Shown: positions 6,049-64,000 of the stretch, piece after piece
Layout: every line of letters begins with the position of its first letter
How positions within the stretch are numbered: the stretch's first letter is position 1
Notes under the pieces: generated by a model
The model's input: the letters and a program-made list of their open reading frames with translations, nothing else
What the model was told of the DNA's origin: nothing
Databases searched by the model: none
Source of the DNA: an uncultured Desulfobacterales bacterium
GTDB lineage: Bacteria > Desulfobacterota > Desulfobacteria > Desulfobacterales > B30-G6
Assembly (NCBI GenBank): GCA_964633115.1
Contig: CAZWEO010000001.1
Location: 78,162 to 142,161 of the forward strand
Direction: 5' to 3'
DNA length: 64,000 nt
Program-made: the position numbers and the translations under genes

Positions 6049-6441
6049 GTGCAATCCTATCGAACCGGAAGGCTTTTTTTTGAATCCATCCCCATTGATT
6101 CCGATCTGATTGCCTATATTAAAGCCCTTTGTCTGAACCAATCGATCCAAATTGCCAGGTTTAAGGTTATAGGGATTGTAGCTTCGGCCACGATTGGTGT
6201 ATATGATCTAAAGCAGCAAGTTTATGTAACCCATATCGAGAAGAAAGCCACCGAAGTGATATCCTGTATGGGCCATGTAAACTGGAATGAAGAAAAACCC
6301 CAGGTTGCCGCTAAAATAATTCTTGCTGACCAGCAAGGACAGGTGACCGGTGGGCATCTTTTCTCCCCCACGTTGGTCCAAGAATCTGAAATCGATCTAC
6401 AGGAACTGATAGATGTAAACTCTGAAATTGTCGTGTCATAA
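6049..6441 (+). CDS. PPC/DUF296 (PCC)-domain protein
   Basis: 130-aa ORF with GTG start and GGAGA RBS. The overall pattern resembles PPC-domain proteins. Weak family call. Confidence 0.55.
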   Translation: MQSYRTGRLFFESIPIDSDLIAYIKALCLNQSIQIARFKVIGIVASATIGVYDLKQQVYVTHIEKKATEVISCMGHVNWNEEKPQVAAKIILADQQGQVTGGHLFSPTLVQESEIDLQELIDVNSEIVVS

Positions 6442-15342: not shown

Positions 15343-18893
<3,551 letters not shown>

Positions 18894-38552: not shown

Positions 38553-40223
38553 ATGGAGCAAGCTCGTGTATTGATTGCAATCGTGCTTTCATTTGCAGTG
38601 TTTTTTGTGTGGAATTTATTCTTTACGGAGGACTCGCCCCCCAAGGAACCGGCAACTGAACCGGCAATACAGGAGACCAAAAAAGGGACCACAACACCCA
38701 TCGAAACACCGGCGCCGGAAATTAAAACCGCCGAGCCGCCAGTGGTTGTTCAACCCGTCGTGCCCACCGTGACCACGGGTTCGGAGTCACGCGTTCTTCA
38801 GGTGGAATCTCCTTTGTACTCAATTGCCATTAATGAACGCGGTGCAGTCTTTCAAAGCTACGTTCTTAAGCAATATCGTGAAGAAATGGCTGCGGATGCA
38901 CCGTATAAGGAGCTTATAGACTCGTCCGCCAGCCAAGATATGTTGGGTTTGTCATTGGTTGGGAATAGCATTCTTGGGTTAGACCAGGCCGTGTTTGCGG
39001 CCGTGGAGACAGCTGACAAACTAGATGTATTCGAAGACGAAAAGCAGCTTACCTTTCTGTGGGCTTCAGAATCAGGCGTTCAAATCGAAAAAAAATATAC
39101 ATTTCAGCCGGATAGTTATCTGATTCAAATGGCGGTGGCGATCCGCAATGGATCCGGTCAGGCAATTGTCGACAAGCTCGTGCTGGGCATGAAAAATGAC
39201 GCGGCGTCAGAAAAAGCCGGATATTCATTCAGTGGCCCCAGTGCAATGATTGACAATAAACTGGAGCAAGTTAAAGAAAAGAAAATAAAGGATCAAAGCG
39301 AATATCCTGGTAATATCAAGTGGTTAGCCATTGTGGATCGCTACTTTATGAAAGGGATAATGCCCAAAGAAGAAACCCAGGGCGCCATGAAACTTTCCTT
39401 GGACGACAAGGGTGTGTTGGGTTGTCGCTTTATCGGTCCCGACCGGACTATCCAGCCAGGCACACAAGCTACATACGAATATGAAATCTTTTTCGGGCCA
39501 AAAAGCATGGCGGTCTTGAAGGAAGCTGGCCATGATCTTAACAGGGCGCTTGATTTCGGAATGTTTGATTTTATCGCCAAGCCACTCCTGTGGTTCATGA
39601 ACTTTATCTACAGCCTGATTCCCAACTATGGCATTGCCATTATTATGTTGACCATATTGACCAAAATTGTCTTATGGCCACTGGGATCCAAGAGCTATAA
39701 GTCCATGAGCGAAATGAAGCGCTTGCAGCCATTAATGGGCGAGATCCGTGAAAAATACAAAAACGACAAAAAGCAGATGAATCAGGAGATTATGTCCCTG
39801 TACCGAACCTACAAGATCAATCCCATGGGCGGGTGCCTTCCCATGGTTATGCAGATTCCGGTCTTTTTTGCTTTGTATCGCATGCTATACCAGGCCATCG
39901 AGCTTCGGCATGCGCCTTTCTTTTTATGGATAAACGATTTGTCGGCTCCGGACCGCTTATTTAATTTTGGTTTCTCGATACCTTTTATGCAGCCGCCTTA
40001 TGGGTTCCCCGTGTTGACGGTCATTATGGGTGCAACCATGCTGCTGCAGCAAAAAATGTCACCCCCCCCCGGAGACCCGACCCAGGCGAAAATGATGATG
40101 CTCATGCCAATCGTTTTCACCTTTATTTTTATCAATTTTTCGTCGGGGCTTGTACTCTACTGGCTAATCAACAATGTTCTATCCATTGGTCAGCAATTTT
40201 ACATTCAGAAAAAGTATGCATAA
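38553..40223 (+). CDS. yidC: Membrane protein insertase YidC
   Basis: 556 aa with an N-terminal anchor, a large periplasmic domain, and the conserved C-terminal 5-TM core (GCLPMVMQIPVFFALY, SGLVLYW). Confidence 0.95.
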   Translation: MEQARVLIAIVLSFAVFFVWNLFFTEDSPPKEPATEPAIQETKKGTTTPIETPAPEIKTAEPPVVVQPVVPTVTTGSESRVLQVESPLYSIAINERGAVFQSYVLKQYREEMAADAPYKELIDSSASQDMLGLSLVGNSILGLDQAVFAAVETADKLDVFEDEKQLTFLWASESGVQIEKKYTFQPDSYLIQMAVAIRNGSGQAIVDKLVLGMKNDAASEKAGYSFSGPSAMIDNKLEQVKEKKIKDQSEYPGNIKWLAIVDRYFMKGIMPKEETQGAMKLSLDDKGVLGCRFIGPDRTIQPGTQATYEYEIFFGPKSMAVLKEAGHDLNRALDFGMFDFIAKPLLWFMNFIYSLIPNYGIAIIMLTILTKIVLWPLGSKSYKSMSEMKRLQPLMGEIREKYKNDKKQMNQEIMSLYRTYKINPMGGCLPMVMQIPVFFALYRMLYQAIELRHAPFFLWINDLSAPDRLFNFGFSIPFMQPPYGFPVLTVIMGATMLLQQKMSPPPGDPTQAKMMMLMPIVFTFIFINFSSGLVLYWLINNVLSIGQQFYIQKKYA

Positions 40224-40238
40224 CAATGGAGGCAGACC

Positions 40239-41015
40239 ATGTCCCCTGTATTGGAATTCGAAGACAAAAGCGTGGAGAAGGCCATTCAGAAGGCCAGCCA
40301 GAAGCTGGATATTCCAGCCAACAAACTTGAACATGACGTCATTTCGCATGGCTCCAGCGGCATTTTTGGCCTGGTTGGATCAAAAAAGGCCAAGATTCGG
40401 GTTGTCGTACCGGAGGAACATTCGGATAGTCCCAGAATCCCAGAGACCAACGACATATCGGAAACAGAGGATCAAGGCGTGGATTCCATTGTAGACGAGG
40501 CTTTTGGAAAGGTGTCCACTACCAATATATCTGATACGGATCTTAATCTGGGGAAAGACGTTTTGCAAAAGATGGTCGATCTGATCACAACAGATGCGAC
40601 AATTAGCATGCAAACGGCAAACGGTAAGATTCTATACGAAGTCAAAGGCGGCAATGCTGCGGTTCTGATCGGTAAACGGGGCCAAACTCTCGAAGCCATG
40701 CAATATTTGGTGGAAAAGATTATCAATAAACAGAACCAAAAACGTATTCGCGTTGAAGTGGATGTGGAAGGATATTTGCAGAATCGACGCGAGCGGCTGG
40801 AAAGTTTGGCTTTACGTTTTAGCGCCAAAGTGAAAAAAACCGGCCGACCACTAACCGCGGGTCAATTCAATGCCCATGATCGCCGTATCATCCATATCAC
40901 CTTGAAAGAGGACCGCGACGTACGAACCCACAGCGTAGGCGAAGGATATTATCGCAAGCTTAAAATTTATCCAAAAAAGAAACGACGGAAAAAATCCAAC
41001 CCAAATAGCACCTAG
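40239..41015 (+). CDS. jag: Jag/KhpB RNA-binding protein (Jag_N + KH + R3H)
   Basis: 258 aa. LIGKRGQTLEAMQYL (KH) and the HDRRIIHITL region (R3H). Conserved position after yidC. Confidence 0.85.
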   Translation: MSPVLEFEDKSVEKAIQKASQKLDIPANKLEHDVISHGSSGIFGLVGSKKAKIRVVVPEEHSDSPRIPETNDISETEDQGVDSIVDEAFGKVSTTNISDTDLNLGKDVLQKMVDLITTDATISMQTANGKILYEVKGGNAAVLIGKRGQTLEAMQYLVEKIINKQNQKRIRVEVDVEGYLQNRRERLESLALRFSAKVKKTGRPLTAGQFNAHDRRIIHITLKEDRDVRTHSVGEGYYRKLKIYPKKKRRKKSNPNST

Positions 41016-41022
41016 CGCATCC

Positions 41023-42426
41023 ATGACTAAAACAACCATAGCGGCCATCTCCACGCCTTATGGCTCCGGCGGCATCGGTATTATTCGCGTATCAGGGGAT
41101 CAATCTATTCAAATTCTGGAAGCGTTATTTGAAAAAAGCGGTTGCAGAGATGGTGACACCGTCCCTGTAATCGATCGTCTGGAATCACACCGCTTTTACC
41201 ATGGATATATTCGGGACTCACAAACAGGGCAACGCGTTGATGAAGTTCTGGTGGTGGCCATGCTGGGACCGCGATCCTATACGCGTGAGGATGTTGTTGA
41301 AATCCATTCTCATTCCGGTCCGGTTGTGTTGGGCAAAATCTTTGAACAGGTGATTAATCGAGGGGCCGCCATTGCCGAACCGGGTGAATTTACCAAGCGG
41401 GCCTTTCTCAACGGTCGTATCGATTTAACCCAGGCCGAAGCGGTAATCGATATTATCCAAGCCAAATCCGAGACAGCCCTACAGATAGCCAATCATCAAT
41501 TAGCAGGCGGGTTAACCCAAAAAATAGATCCAATTAGAGAGGCTCTGCAATCGATTCGGGTGTTAGTTGAAGCAGCCATTGATTTTCCTGAAGACATCGA
41601 AGAAAGTGTAAAAACCCAATCGATTCAGGACGAGCTGGAACTTGATGTCATCGCCAAGATTGATCAGATTTTGGGCGACTATAAGGCGGATCATTATTTC
41701 CGGGATGGCGTTAAAATGGCCGTTATTGGGCGGCCGAATGTAGGCAAGTCCAGCTTAATGAATCGCTTGATTGATCGCGATCGGGCGATTGTAACCGCCA
41801 TACCGGGAACCACGCGCGATGTTATTGAAGAAGTCATTCATATTAAGGGGCTTCCCATTGTGATCATGGATACCGCTGGATTGCATACCGCCAGCGGTGA
41901 GGTTGAAAAGATCGGTATGCAAAAGACACAGCAATCTATTCAGGATGCGGATATCGTCCTTTTTATGATTGATGCCAGTATGGATATTTCGTCAGAAGAT
42001 AATGAGATATATGTGCAAATTGAAAATAAAAAACATTTAATCGTTTACAATAAGATCGATTTGATCCTGGCTGATCAAGAGCAGATCATTTCAACCATGT
42101 GGAAGGATCATGCCGTTGTACGTATTTCGGCACTTAATGGAACCAATCTGGACCAGCTCAAAAGGAAACTATGGTCCCTGGTGGTAGGCAAAACAGGACT
42201 CGACCGAGAAATTGGGGTCGTACCCAACATGCGGCACAAAAAGCAACTGGAAACCTGTTTGGCCGCTGCTAAAAGAGCCAGACGCGCGATTAAAGAAGAG
42301 TTGCCAGCAGAATTGATTGCAACCGACATCATGGACGCCATCAAAACTTTGGGGGCTATTCTTGGCGAACAGTATCCATCGGATTTGCTGGATCAGATTT
42401 TCAGTCGATTCTGCATTGGGAAATAA
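41023..42426 (+). CDS. mnmE: tRNA modification GTPase MnmE
   Basis: 467 aa. TIAAISTP N-terminus, G domain [12 protein letters not shown] / DTAG, C-terminal FCIGK. Confidence 0.95.
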
Positions 42427-53619: not shown

Positions 53620-54990
53620 TCACTTTGCGTTATAACTGGCAAGCTTACGCCTGAGCGTGTTAAGTCCAATACCTAAAATGCGGGCGGCTTGGGATTTGTT
53701 ATGATTTAGCTGATGATATACTTGCATGATGTGGGTTTTTTCAACCTCTGCCAGGGGAGCCAAAGGAGCTGCACCATCAGGAAGTTTTACCTTCTTGGCG
53801 GGCTTTGGGTTACCTAACGACCTGGGTAGGAACCGAGGGGCAATGGGCAAACCCTGGGCAAGGTTTACCGCGGACTCAACCATGGCCTTGAGCTCCCGAA
53901 TATTACCGGGGAAATCATAATTCATTAAAAGTTGCAGTGCTTCAGGTGTAATGAAATTTCCTTTTTCAAGATCGTAATGAGTGGCTAAAAAGGCTCTAAC
54001 CAAAAGGGGGATATCGATCTTGCGATCCCTTAAGGGCGGTAGATGCAGCCAGCCACCCCGGATACGGTAGTAGAGATCCTTCCGAAAACGGCCACGTCGC
54101 ATCCGTTTTTCTAAATCGGTGTTGGTGGCGGCCACAAAACGGACATCCGCAATTTGATCGGTGCTGGTACCCAGTTTGATATAACGGCCGTCCTGAATAA
54201 ATCGAAGCAGTTTTCCTTGCACCTCCATGGGCAACAACCCGATTTCATCCAGAAAAAGGGTGCCCTGGTCGGTATATTCCAAATAGCCCGCTCGGTTGCT
54301 CTCTGCACCGGTATAGGCCCCCTTGGCATGTCCAAAAAACTCAGCATCGAACAGATTACTATTGAGGGACGCCATGTTGATGGCCGTAAACGGATGCTTT
54401 TTTCTAGGGCTGGCCTGATGGATGGCGCGTGCCAATAGCTCTTTTCCGGTGCCACTTTCACCGGTAATGAGTATGGGAACATTGCTGGCAGCATGCAATT
54501 CGGCTTCTTTGAGAACCCGCAGCACACGATTGGATGTGGTGTTGAAGGCTTTAAAGGCGGCCTTGTTTTTTAATCGCGGGGCGGTCTGTTGCTTGGCAAT
54601 ATCTCGAATGTCCAGTAGCCGTTTGTGTTCCAAAGCGCGATGAACCGATAAGGCTAAATCCTGCCTAGAAACCGGCTTGAGCAGATAATCATAAGCACCG
54701 AGTTGTAAACAGGTCACTGCTGTGCGGGCTTCATTGACCGCTGTAATGATGATGCATTCAGTTAATGGGCTATGGTTTTTAATGATATCGAGCAATTCCA
54801 AACCGGTCATGCCCGGCATGGTCATGTCCAGCAAGGCCAGATCAAACTGTTTGCCTGACTCAATTCGTTCGGCCGCCTTTAAGGGATCATCTTCCAGAGT
54901 GATTCGCCGGAACTTATTTTTGCGTAAATGCTGTTTTTGGATATCCAGAAAATCACGGTCATCATCCACAATCAAAATTCGAGGCTCCAT
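53620..54990 (-). CDS. Sigma-54-dependent response regulator (receiver + AAA+ + Fis-type HTH; NtrC/AtoC family)
   Basis: The ORF track extends to 55146. The ATG at 54990 has an AGGAGA RBS and gives MEPRILIVDDD. Walker A GESGTGKE, GAYTGA (a GAFTGA variant), C-terminal HTH SQAARILGIGLNTLRRKL. Confidence 0.9.
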   Translation of the reverse strand: MEPRILIVDDDRDFLDIQKQHLRKNKFRRITLEDDPLKAAERIESGKQFDLALLDMTMPGMTGLELLDIIKNHSPLTECIIITAVNEARTAVTCLQLGAYDYLLKPVSRQDLALSVHRALEHKRLLDIRDIAKQQTAPRLKNKAAFKAFNTTSNRVLRVLKEAELHAASNVPILITGESGTGKELLARAIHQASPRKKHPFTAINMASLNSNLFDAEFFGHAKGAYTGAESNRAGYLEYTDQGTLFLDEIGLLPMEVQGKLLRFIQDGRYIKLGTSTDQIADVRFVAATNTDLEKRMRRGRFRKDLYYRIRGGWLHLPPLRDRKIDIPLLVRAFLATHYDLEKGNFITPEALQLLMNYDFPGNIRELKAMVESAVNLAQGLPIAPRFLPRSLGNPKPAKKVKLPDGAAPLAPLAEVEKTHIMQVYHQLNHNKSQAARILGIGLNTLRRKLASYNAK

Positions 54991-55116
54991 CGTCGGTCTC
55001 CTGAAGGGACATGCGATTGTCCGAGCCCGAACCTTTTTTTCCACGAAACGGAACGTTATCCTGACAATCATTAAGAATCTTCGGCAAGCAGCTTCACTAG
55101 CATTCATTTCGGCGTT

Positions 55117-55205
55117 GTGCCAAATTGGCCTATGCCAATTTGGCACATATCATCTTGCTTGCTGAAAACACAACCAAAAACCTGCTCCATATGCCAAAAT
55201 GGCAT
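55117..55205. promoter_or_regulatory. Three TGCCA-N3-TGGCA palindromes (candidate enhancer/UAS sites)
   Basis: gTGCCAAATTGGCc at 55117..55130, TGCCAATTTGGCA at 55133..55145, aTGCCAAAATGGCAt at 55191..55205. They lie in the divergent intergenic region, roughly 110-200 bp upstream of the -24/-12 promoter. Confidence 0.5.
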
Positions 55206-55244
55206 AATGTAATCTGCCCAAGAAATTTTGGGCAGATTACATTA
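55205..55244. repeat. 40-bp palindrome with perfect 16-bp arms
   Basis: TAATGTAATCTGCCCA (55205..55220) / TGGGCAGATTACATTA (55229..55244), with a mostly self-complementary 8-nt centre agaaattt. Confidence 0.6.
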
Positions 55245-55315: not shown

Positions 55316-55331
55316 TGGCACACTCATTGCG
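55316..55331 (+). promoter_or_regulatory. Sigma-54 (-24/-12) promoter of the metF-like/hdr cluster
   Basis: TGGCACactcaTTGCg. The GG and GC are separated by exactly 10 nt as in the consensus TGGCACG-N4-TTGCW. It lies 114 nt upstream of the ATG at 55445, with an AT-rich bendable stretch between it and the palindromes. Confidence 0.7.
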
Positions 55332-55444: not shown

Positions 55445-56314
55445 ATGGGTCTGAAACAGAAACTAGATGCAGGGGAATTCGTTATACTGGCAGAAATGGA
55501 ACCCCCCAAAGGAGCCGATGCGTCGGCCATGCTTGCCAATGCGAAAAAGGTTAAAGGAAGTGTGGACGCCTTTGTTGTTCCCGAGATGAGTAACGCCGTC
55601 ATGCGTATGAGTTCCCTCGGTGGTGGTATGATTTTGCAGGCCAGCGGTATGGATGTGGTTTTTCAGGTTAACTGTCGGGATCGCAACCGCATTGCCATAC
55701 AAGCAGATCTCTTGGCCGCAAATGGTTGCGGGATTTTTAATATCATGGCTGTTAAAGGAGAGGATCCCAGCTTTGGCGACCATCATCAGGCACGTGCTGT
55801 GTACGACATCGATTTAGCAGAGTTGTTGGCGGCGATCCAAGGGCTCCAACAAGGGCGGGATATGGCCGGGATCGAACTTAAAGGTGCACCGTCATTTTTA
55901 GTGGGAACAACCGTGGATGCCGGTGCCCGGGATAAATCTCCGGAACTGATTCGGGAAGAGATGGATCAGAAAAAGGATGCCGGCGCGCAGTTTTTCATTA
56001 CACCCCCTTTGTTTGATATGGCCACCATCGAACCGTTTATCAAAGGTGTTGATCCCACCGAAACCAGAATCATACCCACAGTCCTGCTACTGAAATCTTT
56101 GGGCATGGCTCGCTACATTTCGCGTAATGTCAGCAATACATTCATCCCGGATGCATTAATTCAGCAGCTCCAGAAAGCGCCGGACAAGGTTAATGCGTGT
56201 ATCAAAATCGCTTCGGAAATGGTCAAAACATTAAAAAAGGAAGGTTTTTGCGGTGTGCAGCTTTCCACAATCGGATGGGAGGATAAGCTCCCGGCAATAT
56301 TGAAAGGGGTTTGA
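55445..56314 (+). CDS. Methylenetetrahydrofolate reductase-like protein (MetF paralogue 1, no adjacent MetV)
   Basis: 289 aa. MTHFR-fold blocks (FQVNCRDRNRIAIQADLLAA, FFITPPLFD). GGGAGG RBS. Confidence 0.75.
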   Translation: MGLKQKLDAGEFVILAEMEPPKGADASAMLANAKKVKGSVDAFVVPEMSNAVMRMSSLGGGMILQASGMDVVFQVNCRDRNRIAIQADLLAANGCGIFNIMAVKGEDPSFGDHHQARAVYDIDLAELLAAIQGLQQGRDMAGIELKGAPSFLVGTTVDAGARDKSPELIREEMDQKKDAGAQFFITPPLFDMATIEPFIKGVDPTETRIIPTVLLLKSLGMARYISRNVSNTFIPDALIQQLQKAPDKVNACIKIASEMVKTLKKEGFCGVQLSTIGWEDKLPAILKGV

Positions 56315-56324
56315 GGAATAAAAA

Positions 56325-59300
56325 ATGACAAAGCAATCAGGTGAGCACAAATCGGATTTGGTCGGTTCAGTCATGGTCGTCGGCGGCGGCATCACAGGCA
56401 TGCAGTCGGCCCTGGATCTTGCCAATTCAGGCTATTATGTTTATATGCTCGAGTCCTCTTCTGCCATTGGTGGACTCATGTCTCAGTTGGACAAGACATT
56501 TCCCACCAACGACTGTGCCATGTGAATTATTTCACCCAAACTGGTCGAGGTCGGCCGGCATCTCAACATCGAGCTTCTTACGAACACCGAATTGATTTCC
56601 TTAAACGGCGAACCAGGTAATTTTAGCGCCAACATTCGTCAGAAACCTCGCTTTATTGATTTAGATAAATGTACCAGTTGCGGGGAATGTGAAAAGGTCT
56701 GCCCCGTATCCCTGCCCAGTGAATACAATGAAGGCCTTGCAGACAAAAAAGCGGCATTCAAGCAATATCCCCAGGCAATTCCGGGGGCGTTTGCAATCGA
56801 TAAAAAAGGTTCGGCGCCCTGTAAGGTAAGTTGCCCGGCCCACGTGAGTGTTCAGGGTTTCATAGCCTTGATCCAGCAGGGGAAATACGAAGAAGCTCTA
56901 AAACTTTTCAAACAGGATCACCCCCTTCCGGGCGTCTGTGGACGGGTGTGCCATCATCCTTGTGAAGGTGCCTGCACACGCAATCAGGTAGATGATACTT
57001 TGTCGATCCAGTATCTGCACCGATTTCTGGCAGACAAGGATCTTGAAAGCGGCAAACCGTTTTTGCCCGAAAAGAAAGCCGAACGATCTGAAAAGATTGC
57101 TATCATCGGCGCCGGACCGGCCGGATTAACCTGCGCCTATTATCTGGCCATTGAGGGATATCAGGTAACCGTTTTTGAGAAGCTTCCGGTCCTGGGCGGC
57201 ATGCTGACAGTCGGGATTCCTTCCTATCGCCTGCCGCGGGATATTATTGAAAGTGAAATTCAGACCATCAAGGATTTGGGCGTCAAGTTTAAAACCGGCG
57301 TAGAGTTGGGCAAGGATATTACGGTGGCCCAACTGCGGGAAGAGGGTTTTAAGGCCTTTTTCATGGGCATTGGCTCGCATGAATGCAAGGTTTTGGGTAT
57401 CGAAGGAGAGGATTTGGAAGGGGTGTACCCGGGCATCGATTTTCTGCGAGAAGTCAACCTGGGCAATCGTGTTCAACTGGGTGAACGTGTGGCCGTGGTC
57501 GGAGGCGGCAACGTCGCCATGGATTCGGTCCGTACGGCCCTACGAACAGGCTCTAAAAAACCATTTGTAATTTACCGCCGCAGCTATGAAGAAATGCCGG
57601 CCAACGATGTGGAAATCGAAGAGTGTGGCGAAGAAGGCGTCGATATCATGACTCTGACCAACCCAATACGTGTGATCGGTGAAAACGGGAAGGTTCAGGC
57701 CATTGAATGTATCAAAATGGAGCTGGGGGAGCCGGATGCCAGTGGTAGACGGCGGCCCGTCCCCATTGAGGGCTCCGAATTTACCATGGAGGTGGATGCA
57801 GTCATTCCGGCAATCGGTCAGGAGAGCGACTGGGCCTGTCTGACAGACGAATGCGCCTGCACCTTGAGCGACTGGGGCACCATGCATGTGGACCCGGTAA
57901 CCCTCCAGTCAAGCGATCCAGATATTTTCTCGGGTGGCGATGCTGTGACCGGTCCGGCGACAGTTGTGGAGGCCGTGGAAGCCGGTAAGCAAGCCGCCAT
58001 CTCCATCGACCGTTTTGTGGAAGGTCAAGATTTGGCTGAGGGACGTGAAAAGCAATGGGTGACGGTGGATGACATTCCCTTGGATGATGCCGTTAATCAA
58101 CCCAAAGAAAAGATGCCGACCCTGGACGCCCAGGAGCGAATTTCAAATTTTAACGAAGTCCAGCTGGGTTTTGACGAGGGCATCTCCCAAAAAGAATCCG
58201 ATCGCTGTCTATCCTGCGGCATTTGCTCGGAATGTTACCAATGTGTGGAGGCCTGTCTGGCTGGTGCTGTGGAACATGAACAGGTGGTTGAAGAAAGACA
58301 GATTCCAGTGGGGTCGGTGGTACTGTCCACGGGCGCACGGCCCTATGATCCTGGCCATTTAGAACGGTATTATCACTATGGCACCAATCCCAATGTGATG
58401 ACGAGTCTGGAATTCGAGCGTATGCTGAGTGCATCCGGACCCACCATGGGACACCTTATTAAGCCATCGGATGAAACCGAACCCAAGCGGATCGCTTGGT
58501 TGCAGTGCATCGGTTCCCGCGATAACAACCAATGTGGCAATGGATACTGTTCTTCGGTTTGCTGTATGTATGCAATCAAGGATGCCATGGTGGCCAAGGA
58601 ACATTCTAAGGCAGACCTGGATTGTACTATTTTTAATATGGACATCCGAACCTTTGGGAAGGATTTTGAAAAGTACTATGTCCGGGCCAAAGACCAGGAA
58701 GGCGTGAATTTCGTCAAAGCACGCGTGCACACTATTGACGAAGTAGGCAAGGATAAGGATTTACGCATCCGCTACGCCGATGAGGCTGGTGAGCTGCAGG
58801 AAGAAATTTTCGACATGGTCGTGCTATCTGTGGGTTTGCAAGTATCGGAGCAGACCATCGATCTGGCTAAACGCCTAGACGTTGAGATGGATCCATATAA
58901 TTTTGCTGTAACCCAACCGTTTTCCCCAGTAGAGACCTCACGTCCGGGGATTTATGTCAGCGGATCTTTTCAGGAAGCCAAAGATATTCCCAGCTCGGTC
59001 TCGGAGGCCTCGGCTGCGGCTTGTGCCGCCGGCGCACGCCTGGCCGCAGTCCGCAATACCTTGACCCGAACGGTGGAACTGCCCCAAGAGCTCGATGTGA
59101 GTGAGGAAGAACCCCGTATCGGCGTCTTTGTTTGTAATTGCGGTATTAACATCGCCGGGGTTGTGGATGTGGCCGCTGTGGAGGAATATGCTAAGACCCT
59201 GCCCTATGTCACCTATGTTACCCAGAACCTGTTTACCTGCTCCCAGGATTCCCAGGACCAGATGAAGGATATTATCAAGGAACAGAATCTTAACCGGATT

Positions 59301-60779
59301 GTGGTGGCTGCCTGTACCCCCAAGACGCATGAAGCCATCTTTATGGATACGATCCGCGAATGCGGCCTCAACAAGTACCTATTTGAAATGGCCAATATCC
59401 GTAACCAAGGCTCTTGGGTCCATGCCAAAGAGGCTGATGAGGCAACTGAAAAATCAAAGGATTTGGTCCGCATGGCCGTGGCCAGATCAGCCACACTCAA
59501 TCCCTTGGGCGAAAAAACCATACCTGTCAATCAAAAGGCCCTGGTGGTGGGTGGTGGTATTGCCGGCATGAATGCGGCCCTGGGTCTTGCTGACCAGGGA
59601 TATGAGGTCTTTTTAGTGGAGAAGGAGAATCAACTGGGCGGTATGGCCAACAACCTAAAGGCCACCATTGAAGGTGCCCAAATTCAGCCCTATCTGACAG
59701 AGCTCCGGGAGCGAATCGGTTCGAATGAAAAGATTCAGGTGCTGACCCAATCGCTCATCGTAGGCTTCTCTGGCTTCAAAGGCAATTTCACAACCGAAGT
59801 ATTAGTGGGGCCTGGCATGTACGAGCGTAAGATCGAACACGGCGTCGTCATCCTGGCCACCGGCGCCAATGAATACCAGCCCAAAGAGTATTTGTACGGT
59901 GAAGACAAACGCGTGATGACCCAGGTGGAGCTGACCCAACATATGGAGAACCTGAAGTCGGGCTCATTGAATCAGGTGGTCATGATCCAATGCGTAGGCT
60001 CACGCAATGAAGAAAATCCAAATTGCTCGCGGATATGCTGCCAGAATGCAATCAAGAATGCTCTCCATATCCGCGAAGAACACCCGGATGCCAATATTTA
60101 TGTGTTGTATCGCGATATCCGGACCTACGGATTGTTGGAGGAGTACTATAAAGAAGCTCGAAAACAAGGCATTTTGTTCTTCCGCTATACACCGGATAAT
60201 CCACCCCAGGTGGAATCTTCAAAAGATGGGGTGAATGTCACCTTTCATGATCATGTGCTCAATCGACCCTTGCAGGTCAGCGCCGATGTACTGGCCCTGA
60301 GTGCCGGCATGGTGCCAGAGGATACGGCCGAGCTTGCTTCAATTGTAAAGCTGGCCAGAACCCCCGAGGGCTTTTTCATGGAAGCCCATGTCAAACTGCG
60401 ACCCGTGGATATGGCCACCGAGGGTATTTTTGTATGTGGCACTGCTCACAGCCCCAAACTGATTTCTGAAACCATATCTCAAGCCAATGCGGCGGCATCG
60501 CGGGCCATCACTTTCCTATCCCAATCGGAACTGACCCTGTCTGCCATTACGGCCGAGGTCAAACAGGACATGTGTGCCTCCTGCCTTGTTTGTGTGCGTT
60601 CCTGTCCCTATGATGTTCCCAAGATCAATGCCGATGGCGTCAGCGAAATTGATGAGGCCCTATGCCATGGATGCGGTGTATGTGCGGCCGAATGCCCGGC
60701 CAAGGCGATTGAGCTTAACTGGTATGAAGACGATCAATTGATTTGCAAGATTGAATCCTTGCTGGAGGGAGTCCTATGA
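56325..60779 (+). CDS. Giant HdrA-like flavoprotein (HdrL-type: HdrA module with inserted GltD/NfnB-like NAD(P)H module + second complete HdrA module), selenocysteine at UGA 56523..56525
   Basis: ORF-track pieces 56325..56525 and 56592..60779 share one frame, and the only stop between them is that TGA. Context [29 protein letters not shown] matches the HdrA Cys/Sec site. GltD-like [16 protein letters not shown]...[14 protein letters not shown]. Second module [29 protein letters not shown]-terminal 2x[4Fe-4S] CxxCxxCxxxCP. Confidence 0.85.
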
Positions 60780-61207
60780 GTCAAACATTTGAGCCGATTA
60801 TTATCGCCTTTTGTTGTAATTTCTGAGGGTATACGGCCGCGGACCTGGCAGGTTCCATGCGACTGACGTATCCGACCAATATTAAAATTATCCGGGTACC
60901 CTGCACCGGTAAGGTGGATATCCTGCATATCCTCAAATCCTTTGAAAAAGGAGCCGACGGTGTTTATGCGGTGGGGTGTATGGAAGGCGATTGCCACTAC
61001 ACCGGTGGTAATTTTAGAGCCCGTAAACGGGTCGAACAGGCCAAAAAGATTTTGGATACGGTAGGTGTGGGCGGAGAACGGGTGGAAATGTTCAATATGG
61101 CCTCCAGCGAAGGCCCCATGTTTGCAGAGGTGGCTGTGGATATGGTGAAAAGGATCAAGGCGCTGGGGCCCAATCCCATCAAGCTACCCAAGAAGGATGC
61201 AGCCTAA
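60776..61207 (+). CDS. mvhD: MvhD-like [2Fe-2S] protein, selenocysteine at UGA 60824..60826
   Basis: The ATG at 60776 overlaps the upstream stop (ATGA), and GGAGGGAG is the RBS. Translation [32 protein letters not shown]... continues in frame into ORF-track 60857..61207. The motif corresponds to the FxCNWC-xY-xxADLAG block of MvhD/VhuD. Confidence 0.85.
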
Positions 61208-61313: not shown

Positions 61314-61982
61314 ATGATTGTTGCTGACAAGAAGCCAATTGAAGAGATTATTGAGGACATCAAGGATCACCAAAAGATACTGGTTCTGGGTTGCAATGAG
61401 TGTGTCACGGTGTGTGAGGCCGGCGGAAAAAAGGAGGTTGGCATCCTGGCATCGGCACTACGCATGTATTTCCTAAATCAGGGCAAGGAAAAGAAGATCG
61501 ATGAACGCACGCTCGAGCGCCAATGCGATCATGAATATCTAGAGGAGATCCGCAATGATATCGATCAGTACGATGCCGTTGTGTCGATTGCTTGTGGCGT
61601 CGGTGTCCAGTTTACAGCCGAAAAGTATCTGGCCATGCCCGTTTATCCCGGTGTCAATACCTGCTTTATGGGTGCCACCGAGGAACGTGGTCTCTGGACC
61701 GAACGATGTCAGGGGTGTGGGCAATGTATCTTATCCCGTACGGGTGGGATCTGCCCGGTTTCACGGTGTGCCAAACGGGTCATGAATGGGCCCTGCGGTG
61801 GATCCACCAAGGGAATGTGCGAAATCAACAAAGAGTTGCTGTGTGCTTGGCAACTGATTGTCGAACGTCTCAAAGCCCTGGATAGATTTGCTGAGTATGA
61901 GGAGCTGAGTCCGATTAAAGATTGGTCCACCGACCGGGCAGGAGGACCCCGAAAAGTTGTGAGGGAGGATGTGCAGTCATGA
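61314..61982 (+). CDS. metV: MetV (MTHFR-associated Cys-rich Fe-S/zinc-ribbon subunit)
   Basis: 222 aa and Cys-rich (LGCNECVTVCEAGG; CQGCGQC; CPVSRCAKRVMNGPCGG). ATGA overlap with the downstream metF. Confidence 0.8.
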   Translation: MIVADKKPIEEIIEDIKDHQKILVLGCNECVTVCEAGGKKEVGILASALRMYFLNQGKEKKIDERTLERQCDHEYLEEIRNDIDQYDAVVSIACGVGVQFTAEKYLAMPVYPGVNTCFMGATEERGLWTERCQGCGQCILSRTGGICPVSRCAKRVMNGPCGGSTKGMCEINKELLCAWQLIVERLKALDRFAEYEELSPIKDWSTDRAGGPRKVVREDVQS

Positions 61983-62908
61983 AAACAAATACGCCGAGTC
62001 GCTTGGAAAAGGTATTAGCTGCCGGTCAGATGGCCGTAACCTCAGAGTGTGGTCCGCCAAGAGGTAGTGATCCGGATGCCATTACCAAGAAAGCAGAGCT
62101 GATCAAGGACCATGTAGATGCCATCAATATCACCGATAATCAGACGTCAGTTACACGTATGTGCAGCCTGGCGGCCTGTATCCGCATCAAATTGATGGGA
62201 CTGGATCCGGTGTTACAGATGGTAACGCGCGATCGGAATCGGATTGCCTTGCAGAGTGATATTTTAGGCGCCGCATCCTATGATATCGCCAATATTCTGT
62301 GTCTCTCCGGCGATCATCAAAGTTTTGGTGACTGCGCCCAGGGCCAAAATGTGCATGATCTCGATTCCATGCAACTGGTTCAGACCGCTCGCCATATGCG
62401 CGATGAAGGTAAATTCTTGGGGGGTGACGATATCAAGCGGCCGCCTCAGATGTTTGTGGGTGCCGCAGCCAACCCTTTTGCCGATCCATTTGAGATACGC
62501 GTGCCAAGATTGGCCAAAAAAATCAAGGCCGGGGCCGAATTTATCCAAACTCAATGTATCTATAACCTGGATAAATTTGAAGAATGGATGAAGCTAACCC
62601 GGGATCGGGGTTTGCATGAACAGGTCTATATCCTAGCCGGCATGACACCTATGAAGTCGGCCGGTATGGCCAAATATATGAAGAATCGCGTACCCGGCAT
62701 GGATGTGCCCGATGAGTTGGTTAAACGCTTGTCGGATACGCCCAAGGAAAAGCAGGCCGAAGAGGGTATCAAGATATGTATTGAAGACATTCAACGATTG
62801 AAAGAAGTGGAAGGCGTGAGTGGTTTTCATGTCATGGCCATCGAGTGGGAAGAAATGGTACCTGAAATCGTGGAAGCGGCGGGTTTGTATCCTCGGCCCA
62901 CCGTGTGA
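61979..62908 (+). CDS. metF: Methylenetetrahydrofolate reductase (MetF paralogue 2, MetV-coupled)
   Basis: The ORF track starts at 61922. The ATG at 61979 overlaps the metV stop. 309 aa with blocks QMVTRDRNRIALQSDILGA and EFIQTQCIYN. Confidence 0.85.
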   Translation: MKTNTPSRLEKVLAAGQMAVTSECGPPRGSDPDAITKKAELIKDHVDAINITDNQTSVTRMCSLAACIRIKLMGLDPVLQMVTRDRNRIALQSDILGAASYDIANILCLSGDHQSFGDCAQGQNVHDLDSMQLVQTARHMRDEGKFLGGDDIKRPPQMFVGAAANPFADPFEIRVPRLAKKIKAGAEFIQTQCIYNLDKFEEWMKLTRDRGLHEQVYILAGMTPMKSAGMAKYMKNRVPGMDVPDELVKRLSDTPKEKQAEEGIKICIEDIQRLKEVEGVSGFHVMAIEWEEMVPEIVEAAGLYPRPTV

Positions 62909-63424: not shown

Positions 63425-64000
63425 ATGTCATTGCCGGTTTTAAAGCTAGATAAGAAAAAAAGTGTGTTCAAAGAAGAGGTCATGAAAATCTTGCCCGAGG
63501 GGGGTAATCTAAATCTTTGTCTGACATGTGGGCTGTGCTCTTCGGGATGCCCGGCAACCGGGTTAGAGGACATGGACCCCCGAAAATTTTTAAGAATGGC
63601 TTCACTGGGGCTGGATGAGGAGGTGCTGAGTTCAAAGTGGGCCTGGATGTGTACCATGTGTCAACGCTGTATCATCGCCTGCCCCATGAAGATCGATATC
63701 CCGGCTCTGGTTTTCAATGTCCGTAATCGTTGGCCGGTAGAAGATCGACCCAAAGGTATTCATAGCTCATGTGAAATGGCCTTTAAAAATGATACCTGCA
63801 GCGCCATGGGTGCCACGGTAGAGGATTTTCGATTTGTCGTCGAGGATGTGCTGGAGGAGTATCAGGAGGAACAGCCTGAATTTAAGGATATGCAGGCGCC
63901 CATCGACAAACATGGGTCCGAGTTTTTCTTGAACCAGAACTCGCGCGAACCAGTGACGGAACCGGATGAAATGGTACCGTTATGGAAAATTTTGCACACG
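63425..64000 (+). CDS. HdrC/HdrD-like iron-sulfur protein (5' part; runs off the window)
   Basis: Not in the ORF track because there is no stop within the window. The ATG at 63425 is open for 192 codons. Two ferredoxin motifs, CLTCGLCSSGCP and CTMCQRCIIACP. The antisense ORF 63361..63657 is judged spurious. Confidence 0.75.
   Translation, partial: MSLPVLKLDKKKSVFKEEVMKILPEGGNLNLCLTCGLCSSGCPATGLEDMDPRKFLRMASLGLDEEVLSSKWAWMCTMCQRCIIACPMKIDIPALVFNVRNRWPVEDRPKGIHSSCEMAFKNDTCSAMGATVEDFRFVVEDVLEEYQEEQPEFKDMQAPIDKHGSEFFLNQNSREPVTEPDEMVPLWKILHT

Follow-up and report, generated by a model that had tools for sequence, protein, structure and literature searches.

A candidate selenocysteine codon in an HdrL-type gene of an uncultured Desulfobacterales bacterium

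In Desulfobacterium autotrophicum HRM2, HdrL is defined as a fusion of HdrA with a glutamate-synthase part whose gene is followed by mvhD (Strittmatter et al. 2009, PMC2702500), and the selenoproteins of this organism include HdrL1, HdrL3 and four MvhD paralogues (PMC2702500). A catalogue published in 2006 lists HdrA and FrhD (MvhD) as bacterial selenoprotein families, names both proteins of Moorella among the selenoproteins and records hdrA fusions in Deltaproteobacteria; HdrL proteins have also been discussed in Syntrophobacter and Desulfurivibrio. The gene described here, hdrL, belongs to the same group. It lies on a 64,000-nt stretch of DNA (hereafter the window) from an uncultured Desulfobacterales bacterium, and its reading frame contains an in-frame UGA, which is discussed below as a candidate codon for selenocysteine (Sec).

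The gene product combines HdrA parts with a glutamate-synthase-type module for NAD(P)H and flavin adenine dinucleotide (FAD), and mvhD (60776-61207) is the next gene, as in the definition of HdrL. Judged by the published description of the D. autotrophicum proteins, it is, like HdrL1 and HdrL3, large and soluble, fuses HdrA with a glutamate-synthase-type part and has an NAD(P)H site, an adjacent mvhD, a predicted Sec and a host within the Desulfobacterales. An earlier sequence-only reading of this DNA had noted the resemblance to HdrL, and PMC2702500 bears it out, from the fusion and the neighbouring mvhD to the Sec in HdrL1 and HdrL3. The surroundings differ, however: hdrL sits here in a metF-metV cluster, while in D. 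autotrophicum dsrABC follows the HdrL1 locus and a fumarate-reductase-like region is part of HdrL3. Furthermore, HdrL was called unique to the D. autotrophicum genome in PMC2702500, but a protein search with the present HdrL returned thousands of relatives.

Because Sec-containing HdrA, Sec-containing MvhD and HdrL have all been published, this hdrL adds one member to a known selenoprotein family and does not change current concepts. The additions are modest, and consist of a corrected candidate for the selenocysteine insertion sequence (SECIS) with an invariant core of 18 nt, three predicted Sec codons in one cluster and the complementarity of two HdrA modules.

The in-frame UGA of hdrL

56325..60779, plus strand: hdrL, a single gene of 1484 codons through the UGA at 56523, from its frame, its homologues, the TGA/TGY column and the domain map
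56523..56525, plus strand: predicted Sec codon U67 in the motif C64-A-M-U67, from the codon column in homologous sites and the alignment to Cys197 of PDB entry 5ODC

One frame leads from ATG 56325, which has a GAGGA ribosome-binding site 8 nt upstream, to TGA 60777-60779, and the sole stop within it is TGA 56523-56525. A mechanical list of open reading frames (ORFs) gives two pieces in this common frame, of 66 aa (56325..56525, starting with ATG) and 1395 aa (56592..60779, starting with TTG). The sequence-only reading had joined them across the UGA; its coordinates were exact, and the read-through product has 1484 residues.

Eighty genomic loci encoding the N-terminal 342 residues of HdrL were fetched, mostly from metagenome-assembled genomes (MAGs) of Desulfobacterales, the closest being 97% identical and labelled 'uncultured Desulfobacterales bacterium'. 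The block DKTFPTNDC(A/S/T)M is present in 74 sites, and the codon that comes next was scored in each: it is TGA in 36, TGC in 28 and TGT in 10, with no other codon in the column. The tblastn matches run over the TGA at 62-97% identity and span residues 1-342. The protein is conserved on both sides of the UGA, as residues 25-160 align gap-free to HdrA 152-287, with U67 on Cys197 of the Methanothermococcus HdrA in 5ODC. The 22 codons after the UGA, which had been read as coding, match both the Cys homologues and this solved HdrA. Taken together, these comparisons indicate that TGA 56523-56525 is very probably a Sec codon within an HdrL-type gene, at the position held by Cys in other HdrA proteins, as was first proposed from the letters of the DNA.

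The alternative that follows from conventional gene calling is that the UGA is a genuine stop, which would leave a fragment of the FAD fold with 66 residues and a separate protein of 1395 residues starting at TTG 56592. Gene callers annotate exactly such a split, and the ORFs scanned in the window showed no Sec machinery. Against this, a conserved HdrA block is encoded by the 22 codons that separate the TGA from the TTG, the column alternates with Cys codons only, a piece of 66 residues would sever the Rossmann FAD fold, and an 18-nt block 3' of the TGA is constrained at the nucleotide level in TGA genes only; a genuine stop is thus extremely unlikely. A pseudogene, or an error of one base in assembly or sequencing, has a negligible probability, given that independent assemblies have this TGA in 36 sites (32 of them distinct in sequence), that 12 contigs carry the identical protein and that the frame stays intact over 1484 codons. 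The strict alternation of Sec and Cys codons and the tblastn matches across the stop therefore exclude, for practical purposes, all of these explanations.

It may also be asked whether read-through of the UGA gives Cys or Trp rather than Sec, through near-cognate decoding or a reassigned code. The Cys at this column in half of the homologues and a Sec machinery that is so far only presumed both favour such a reading. However, UGA is an ordinary stop in this DNA, where it ends 7 of the 37 long ORFs of the window, hdrL included, and therefore it is not reassigned genome-wide. Moreover, three UGAs of the cluster are followed at the same spacing by a conserved hairpin with a GG loop, the signature of SelB-dependent recoding, and the family is documented as a selenoprotein family. 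Read-through as Cys or Trp is consequently very unlikely, and insertion of Sec is the reading followed below.

Automated callers had been expected to split the gene, and the JGI calls on the same contig sequence (metagenome 3300009128, contig Ga0118727_1000114) are indeed 66 aa and 1395 aa long. The same holds for relatives: among the best 120 protein matches, all those of 67-100% identity have 1250-1418 residues, cover 84-95% of the query and are truncated at the N-terminus, and the five with 98-99% coverage (P0096, P0098, P0114, P0115 and P0117; 64-65% identity) carry Cys at the site. Public gene calls for the HdrL family are almost always truncated, and documenting this is part of the modest value added here. 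Such systematic mis-annotation removes the start of the FAD-binding fold together with the redox-active C-x-x-U motif, and distorts domain-based metabolic reconstructions of sulfate reducers. A megablast search of plasmids with the hdrL gene gave no match.

SECIS candidates and the other UGA codons of the cluster

56541..56558, plus strand: best SECIS candidate of hdrL, CUGGUCG-AGGU-CGGCCGG, a 7-bp stem closed by AGGU (56548-56551) and beginning 15 nt after the UGA
56547..56564, plus strand: hairpin proposed earlier, GAGGU-N8-AUCUC, with 5 bp, an 8-nt loop and -3.5 kcal/mol, mutually exclusive with 56541-56558

The bacterial SECIS of Escherichia coli fdhF is bound by SelB at its apical loop, which contains G23 and U24, and its minimal hairpin begins about 11 nt after the UGA. 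Like elements of this type, the hairpin at 56541-56558 lies within the ORF just 3' of the UGA and presents GGU in its apical loop (+26 to +29). Unlike them, its stem is shorter, with 7 bp and without the bulged U, and its sequence is lineage-specific, with no match in Rfam. It is the minimum-free-energy hairpin of short folds (-10.2 kcal/mol). A rough screen of both strands of the window, for long open frames joined by an in-frame TGA with a GG-loop hairpin 3' of it at this spacing, gave a single site, at 56523.

The constraint on this segment depends on the codon in the column. The 18 nt from 56540 to 56557 (A CUG GUC GAG GUC GGC CG) are invariant, six wobble positions included, in the 32 distinct TGA-type sequences; within 56538-56558 only one of seven wobble sites varies in these sequences, against 14 of 14 in the flanking codons (Fisher p = 1.3e-4). 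By comparison, the wobble sites of 56538-56558 all vary (7/7) in the 37 distinct Cys-type sequences. All seven pairs of the hairpin form in 28/32 Sec sequences and in 0/37 Cys sequences, and the pairing is kept in 98% of the alignment cells. A SelB-type factor carrying Sec-tRNA(Sec) would be held by this mRNA hairpin through its AGGU loop, 15 nt 3' of the UGA, and the ribosome would insert Sec at the UGA and continue to the TGA at 60779, yielding one HdrL of 1484 residues.

The element that the sequence-only reading had put forward as a weak SECIS was the overlapping hairpin at 56547-56564. This hairpin exists, but it is less stable and less well conserved than 56541-56558. Sec might still be inserted with 56547-56564, or a larger structure containing it, as the functional SECIS. 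The inner four pairs are kept in 28/31 sequences, one of them with a change from G-U to G-C, and the invariant GGU is common to both hairpins. On the other hand, its energy is -3.5 against -10.2 kcal/mol; the outer pair fails in 22/31 sequences, and in three sequences further pairs are lost and not compensated; the invariance of 56540-56546 is left unexplained; the 3' arm consists of His-Leu codons that are conserved at the protein level in Cys genes also; and the hairpins of mvhD and the HdrD-like gene, described below, are of the 56541-56558 type. By conservation and energy 56541-56558 thus appears the better candidate, and 56547-56564, disfavoured rather than discarded, is unlikely to be the functional SECIS. 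Some Cys-type hdrL genes (e.g., L067 and L069) keep a near-SECIS sequence, which may be a fossil element.

60776..61207, plus strand: mvhD, 143 codons, Pfam FlpD (2.1e-37, downstream part), with predicted Sec codon U17 at 60824-60826
60841..60855, plus strand: SECIS candidate of mvhD, GGACCU-GGC-AGGUUC, from its fold and an invariant run
63425..64000 and beyond the window end, plus strand: 5' part of an HdrD/GlpC-like gene with Fer4 and CCG domains, seen in longer form on a contig copy, L083

Two other genes of the cluster have a UGA of the same design. The ATG of mvhD at 60776, preceded by GGAGGG, overlaps the hdrL stop as ATGA; gene callers place the start at 60857, so that the first 27 codons are lost. 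At homologous loci the UGA column of mvhD is TGA in 26 and TGC or TGT in 15, and no position of the 17-nt run 60839-60855 (GCGGACCUGGCAGGUUC) changes among the 22 distinct TGA-type sequences, whereas its wobble sites vary in the 15 of Cys type. Gene callers divide the HdrD/GlpC-like gene (L083:16834-18147) into pieces of 242 aa and 157 aa, which share one frame, around an in-frame TGA at L083:17560-17562, about 151 nt past the window end, in the context LNTE-U-GHEFF. The hairpin CAGUCCG-GGU-CGGACUG follows this TGA, and the column is TGA in nine other loci and TGC in one. In both mvhD and the HdrD-like gene a stem of 6-7 bp starts from +18 to +20 and closes a GG loop of 3-5 nt. Thus, all three UGA sites of the cluster align with Cys and have a G-rich apical loop at +24 to +29, which argues strongly, if indirectly, for Sec decoding in this organism. 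Such genes could be searched for with the strict SECIS blocks of 17-18 nt as patterns.

Across genomes, each of the three genes changes between Sec and Cys independently of the others. HdrL of the Cys type is found together with Sec-MvhD (L019, L038, L056, L062 and L075) and with a Sec-containing HdrD-like protein (L028-L030, L033, L035, L037, L040 and L064). One locus, L046, contains two TGA-type HdrA blocks (at 6175 and 11368), about 5 kb from each other, whose invariant SECIS cores are identical; they look like tandem Sec-HdrA/HdrL paralogues. Two MAGs labelled Anaerolineales and Bacteroidales (L020 and L023) have a TGA-type hdrL of 70% identity with a SECIS of the Desulfobacterales type, on short contigs of low coverage; mis-binning is more likely here than horizontal transfer.

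Several observations weigh against the Sec reading and its SECIS. The NCBIfam scan of the window found no selA, selB or selD among 30 other long ORFs (the segment 43593-47292 was left out), which gave housekeeping functions only (dnaN, gyrB, yidC, jag, mnmE, asnS and transporters), and ARAGORN found no tRNA, hence no tRNA-Sec, in the 64-kb window; selA, selB, selC and selD are likewise absent from the called genes of L083. The hairpin at 56541-56558 has no covariation because it never varies, and its structure is one that we infer from constraint at synonymous sites and from energy. The folding energy is unremarkable compared with shuffled sequences (z about -0.9 to +0.3), and Rfam reports neither a SECIS nor another RNA family in the window at the gathering threshold or in 56480-56640 at a permissive one. 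Lastly, the alternative hairpin at 56547-56564 does keep its inner four pairs in most sequences (28/31).

Domain architecture and residue 197

The domain map was obtained from Pfam and from PDB comparisons with phmmer.

Residues 25-160: HdrA 152-287, from the FAD fold with the C-x-x-C block to midway through the inserted ferredoxin domain
56814..58046, plus strand (residues 164-574): NfnB/GltD-like module, Pfam Fer4_20 and Pyr_redox_2, with FAD and NAD(P)H sites
Residues 633-839: HdrA 289-492
59112..60776, plus strand (residues 930-1484): HdrA module 2, with N-terminal cluster, FAD and C-terminal ferredoxin domains
Residues 930-1106: HdrA 1-177, the N-terminal cluster domain and the start of the second FAD fold
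Residues 1305-1480: HdrA 467-642, the C-terminal ferredoxin domain

Module 1 starts at the FAD fold. It contains VVGGGITG and C64-A-M-U67, aligned to residues 194-197 of 5ODC in the thioredoxin-reductase-like FAD domain, and it lacks an N-terminal cluster domain (N-domain), while nothing in it matches the C-terminal ferredoxin domain. A GltD/NfnB-like module had been read as inserted in this first HdrA module, and residues 164-574 do lie between the HdrA-matching segments 25-160 and 633-839, inside the inserted ferredoxin domain. They match over their full length NfnI (5JCA, 1.9e-97), 4YLF and GltD (6S6S). Like NfnB (5JCA/4YLF) and GltD, this part has a Fer4_20 domain with two [4Fe-4S] clusters and both FAD and NAD(P)H sites; unlike them, it is an insertion within an HdrA domain and not a free subunit, and it has no NfnA partner. 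The second HdrA module was described earlier as lacking the DCxM(C/U) block, which agrees with its matches at 930-1106 and 1305-1480 and with its translation, where neither the DKTFPTxDCxMC block nor an inserted ferredoxin domain is present. The domain set of a single-module HdrA (N-terminal cluster, inserted and C-terminal ferredoxin domains) is thus split over two modules, and by its sequence HdrL is an HdrA-derived fusion, not a canonical HdrA.

The motif C-x-x-C/U is shared with the Sec197 HdrA of Methanococcus maripaludis and Methanocaldococcus jannaschii (PMC13518236) and with the Cys197 HdrA of Methanothermococcus thermolithotrophicus (5ODC), where residue 197 lies between the [4Fe-4S] cluster of the N-domain and the FAD (PMC9012536, PMC13518236). 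The archaeal protein is a homodimer-forming subunit of 650 residues with an archaeal SECIS in the 3' untranslated region, whereas in HdrL two complementary modules are fused, an NfnB-like part is inserted and the candidate SECIS, of bacterial type, lies within the ORF. In the homodimer, Cys197 of one HdrA protomer completes the [4Fe-4S] cluster in the N-domain of its partner; in fused or tandem HdrA proteins, among them that of the Moorella MetFV-HdrABC-MvhD complex, the losses of Cys197 and of the N-domain complement each other (PMC9012536). Module 1 of HdrL has residue 197 as predicted Sec and no N-domain, and module 2 has the N-domain and no residue 197; HdrL therefore fits this pseudo-heterodimer rule.

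HdrL may accordingly be pictured as a single-chain pseudo-heterodimer of two HdrA modules. Module 1 would contribute C64-x-x-U67, equivalent to the Cys194/Cys197 site of HdrA, and the NfnB/GltD-like part with NAD(P)H, FAD and two [4Fe-4S] clusters, and module 2 would supply the N-terminal [4Fe-4S] domain, a second FAD fold and a C-terminal ferredoxin domain with two clusters. By analogy with HdrA homodimers, we infer that U67 reaches and contacts the N-domain cluster of module 2, where it could act as a cluster ligand or as part of a Cys-Sec relay to the FAD. The published roles of residue 197 differ, being a cluster ligand in PMC9012536 and a Cys-Sec relay in PMC13518236, which counts against assigning either one to U67; for the M. 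maripaludis HdrA, in which Sec197 and a Cys stand between the A3 cluster and the FAD, the latter study considers a selenylsulfide relay and explicitly leaves the role unresolved.

Gene neighbourhood and proposed function

55445..56314, plus strand: metF-like gene 1, methylene-tetrahydrofolate reductase (MTHFR) of 289 aa, Pfam PF02219 (E 4.7e-28), in the same place in L083 and L084
61314..61982, plus strand: metV, MTHFR-associated Fe-S protein (DUF5981), Pfam PF12225 (9.9e-36)
61922..62908, plus strand: metF-like gene 2 (MTHFR), Pfam PF02219 (3.3e-35), with the JGI start at 61979 (L083 call)

The gene order is metF-hdrL-mvhD-metV-metF-response regulator-hdrD-like, and it is the same in L083 and L084, which include a 4.24-Mb contig from another sample. 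Like the locus for the MetFV-HdrABC-MvhD complex of Moorella thermoacetica (Mock et al. 2014; PMC5861303, PMC9012536), the cluster unites metF, metV and mvhD, and its double HdrA displays the Cys197/N-domain complementarity. Unlike in Moorella, HdrL has the NfnB/GltD insertion, there are two copies of metF, and no separate hdrB or hdrC is present, a fused Fer4 and CCG (HdrD/GlpC-like) gene lying two genes further 3' instead. Compared with the HdrA3/4 fusions of anaerobic methanotrophic archaea (ANME), which PMC9012536 likens to Moorella HdrA, the order of the HdrL modules appears reversed.

HdrL, Sec-MvhD, MetV, the two MetF paralogues and the Sec-containing HdrD-like protein would most likely form a Moorella-type MetFV-Hdr-MvhD methylene-tetrahydrofolate (THF) reductase, linked to NAD(P)H and working by flavin-based electron bifurcation or confurcation. 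In complete-oxidising Desulfobacterales the direction would be the oxidation of methyl-THF. An NAD(P)H-linked bifurcating or confurcating methylene-THF/methyl-THF oxidoreductase is proposed because the gene set parallels that of the Moorella methylene-THF reductase, and we give it an even chance or slightly less; for the Moorella complex itself the second electron acceptor was still unknown (PMC5861303). The proposal is open to the objection that the link to MTHFR, the bifurcation and the role of U67 are all drawn from gene context and homologues.

A broader version, more speculative and on balance doubtful, is that HdrL is a natural asymmetric single-chain HdrA dimer with one Sec at residue 197, one N-domain cluster and a ferredoxin exit rewired to the NfnB-like NAD(P)H module. 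With it, Sec-MvhD and the Sec-containing HdrD-like protein, the step between methyl-THF and methylene-THF in the reverse Wood-Ljungdahl pathway of Desulfobacterales would be both selenium-dependent and electron-confurcating, and HdrL would in that case be a clean system in which to settle what Sec197 or Cys197 does in HdrA, as cluster ligand or Cys-Sec electron relay. The cluster places three predicted selenocysteines in one predicted methylene-THF reductase/Hdr complex, and the supply of selenium would be tied to the C1 branch of acetyl-CoA oxidation in Desulfobacterales that are abundant in marine and sediment habitats.

55316..55330, plus strand: candidate sigma-54 -24/-12 promoter TGGCACACTCATTGC, a match to TGGCAC-N5-TTGC, 115 nt 5' of the metF ATG
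53620-55146, minus strand: sigma-54 activator with a response-regulator receiver domain, divergent and adjoining the candidate promoter

The divergent activator next to the candidate promoter suggests two-component, sigma-54-dependent control of the operon. The loose sigma-54 pattern shows no enrichment over the window (14 matches against 11 expected), and the promoter assignment therefore rests on position. About 90 nt 5' of the sigma-54 motif there is a perfect 12-bp inverted repeat, TAATCTGCCCAA-N6-TTGGGCAGATTA (55210-55239), in a position typical of a site for an enhancer-binding protein. As to the wider surroundings, the ORFs that were scanned in the window showed no dnaA; dnaN-gyrB and yidC-jag-mnmE are present (15343-18893 and 38553-42426), and the window is therefore placed in the replication-origin-proximal part of the chromosome.

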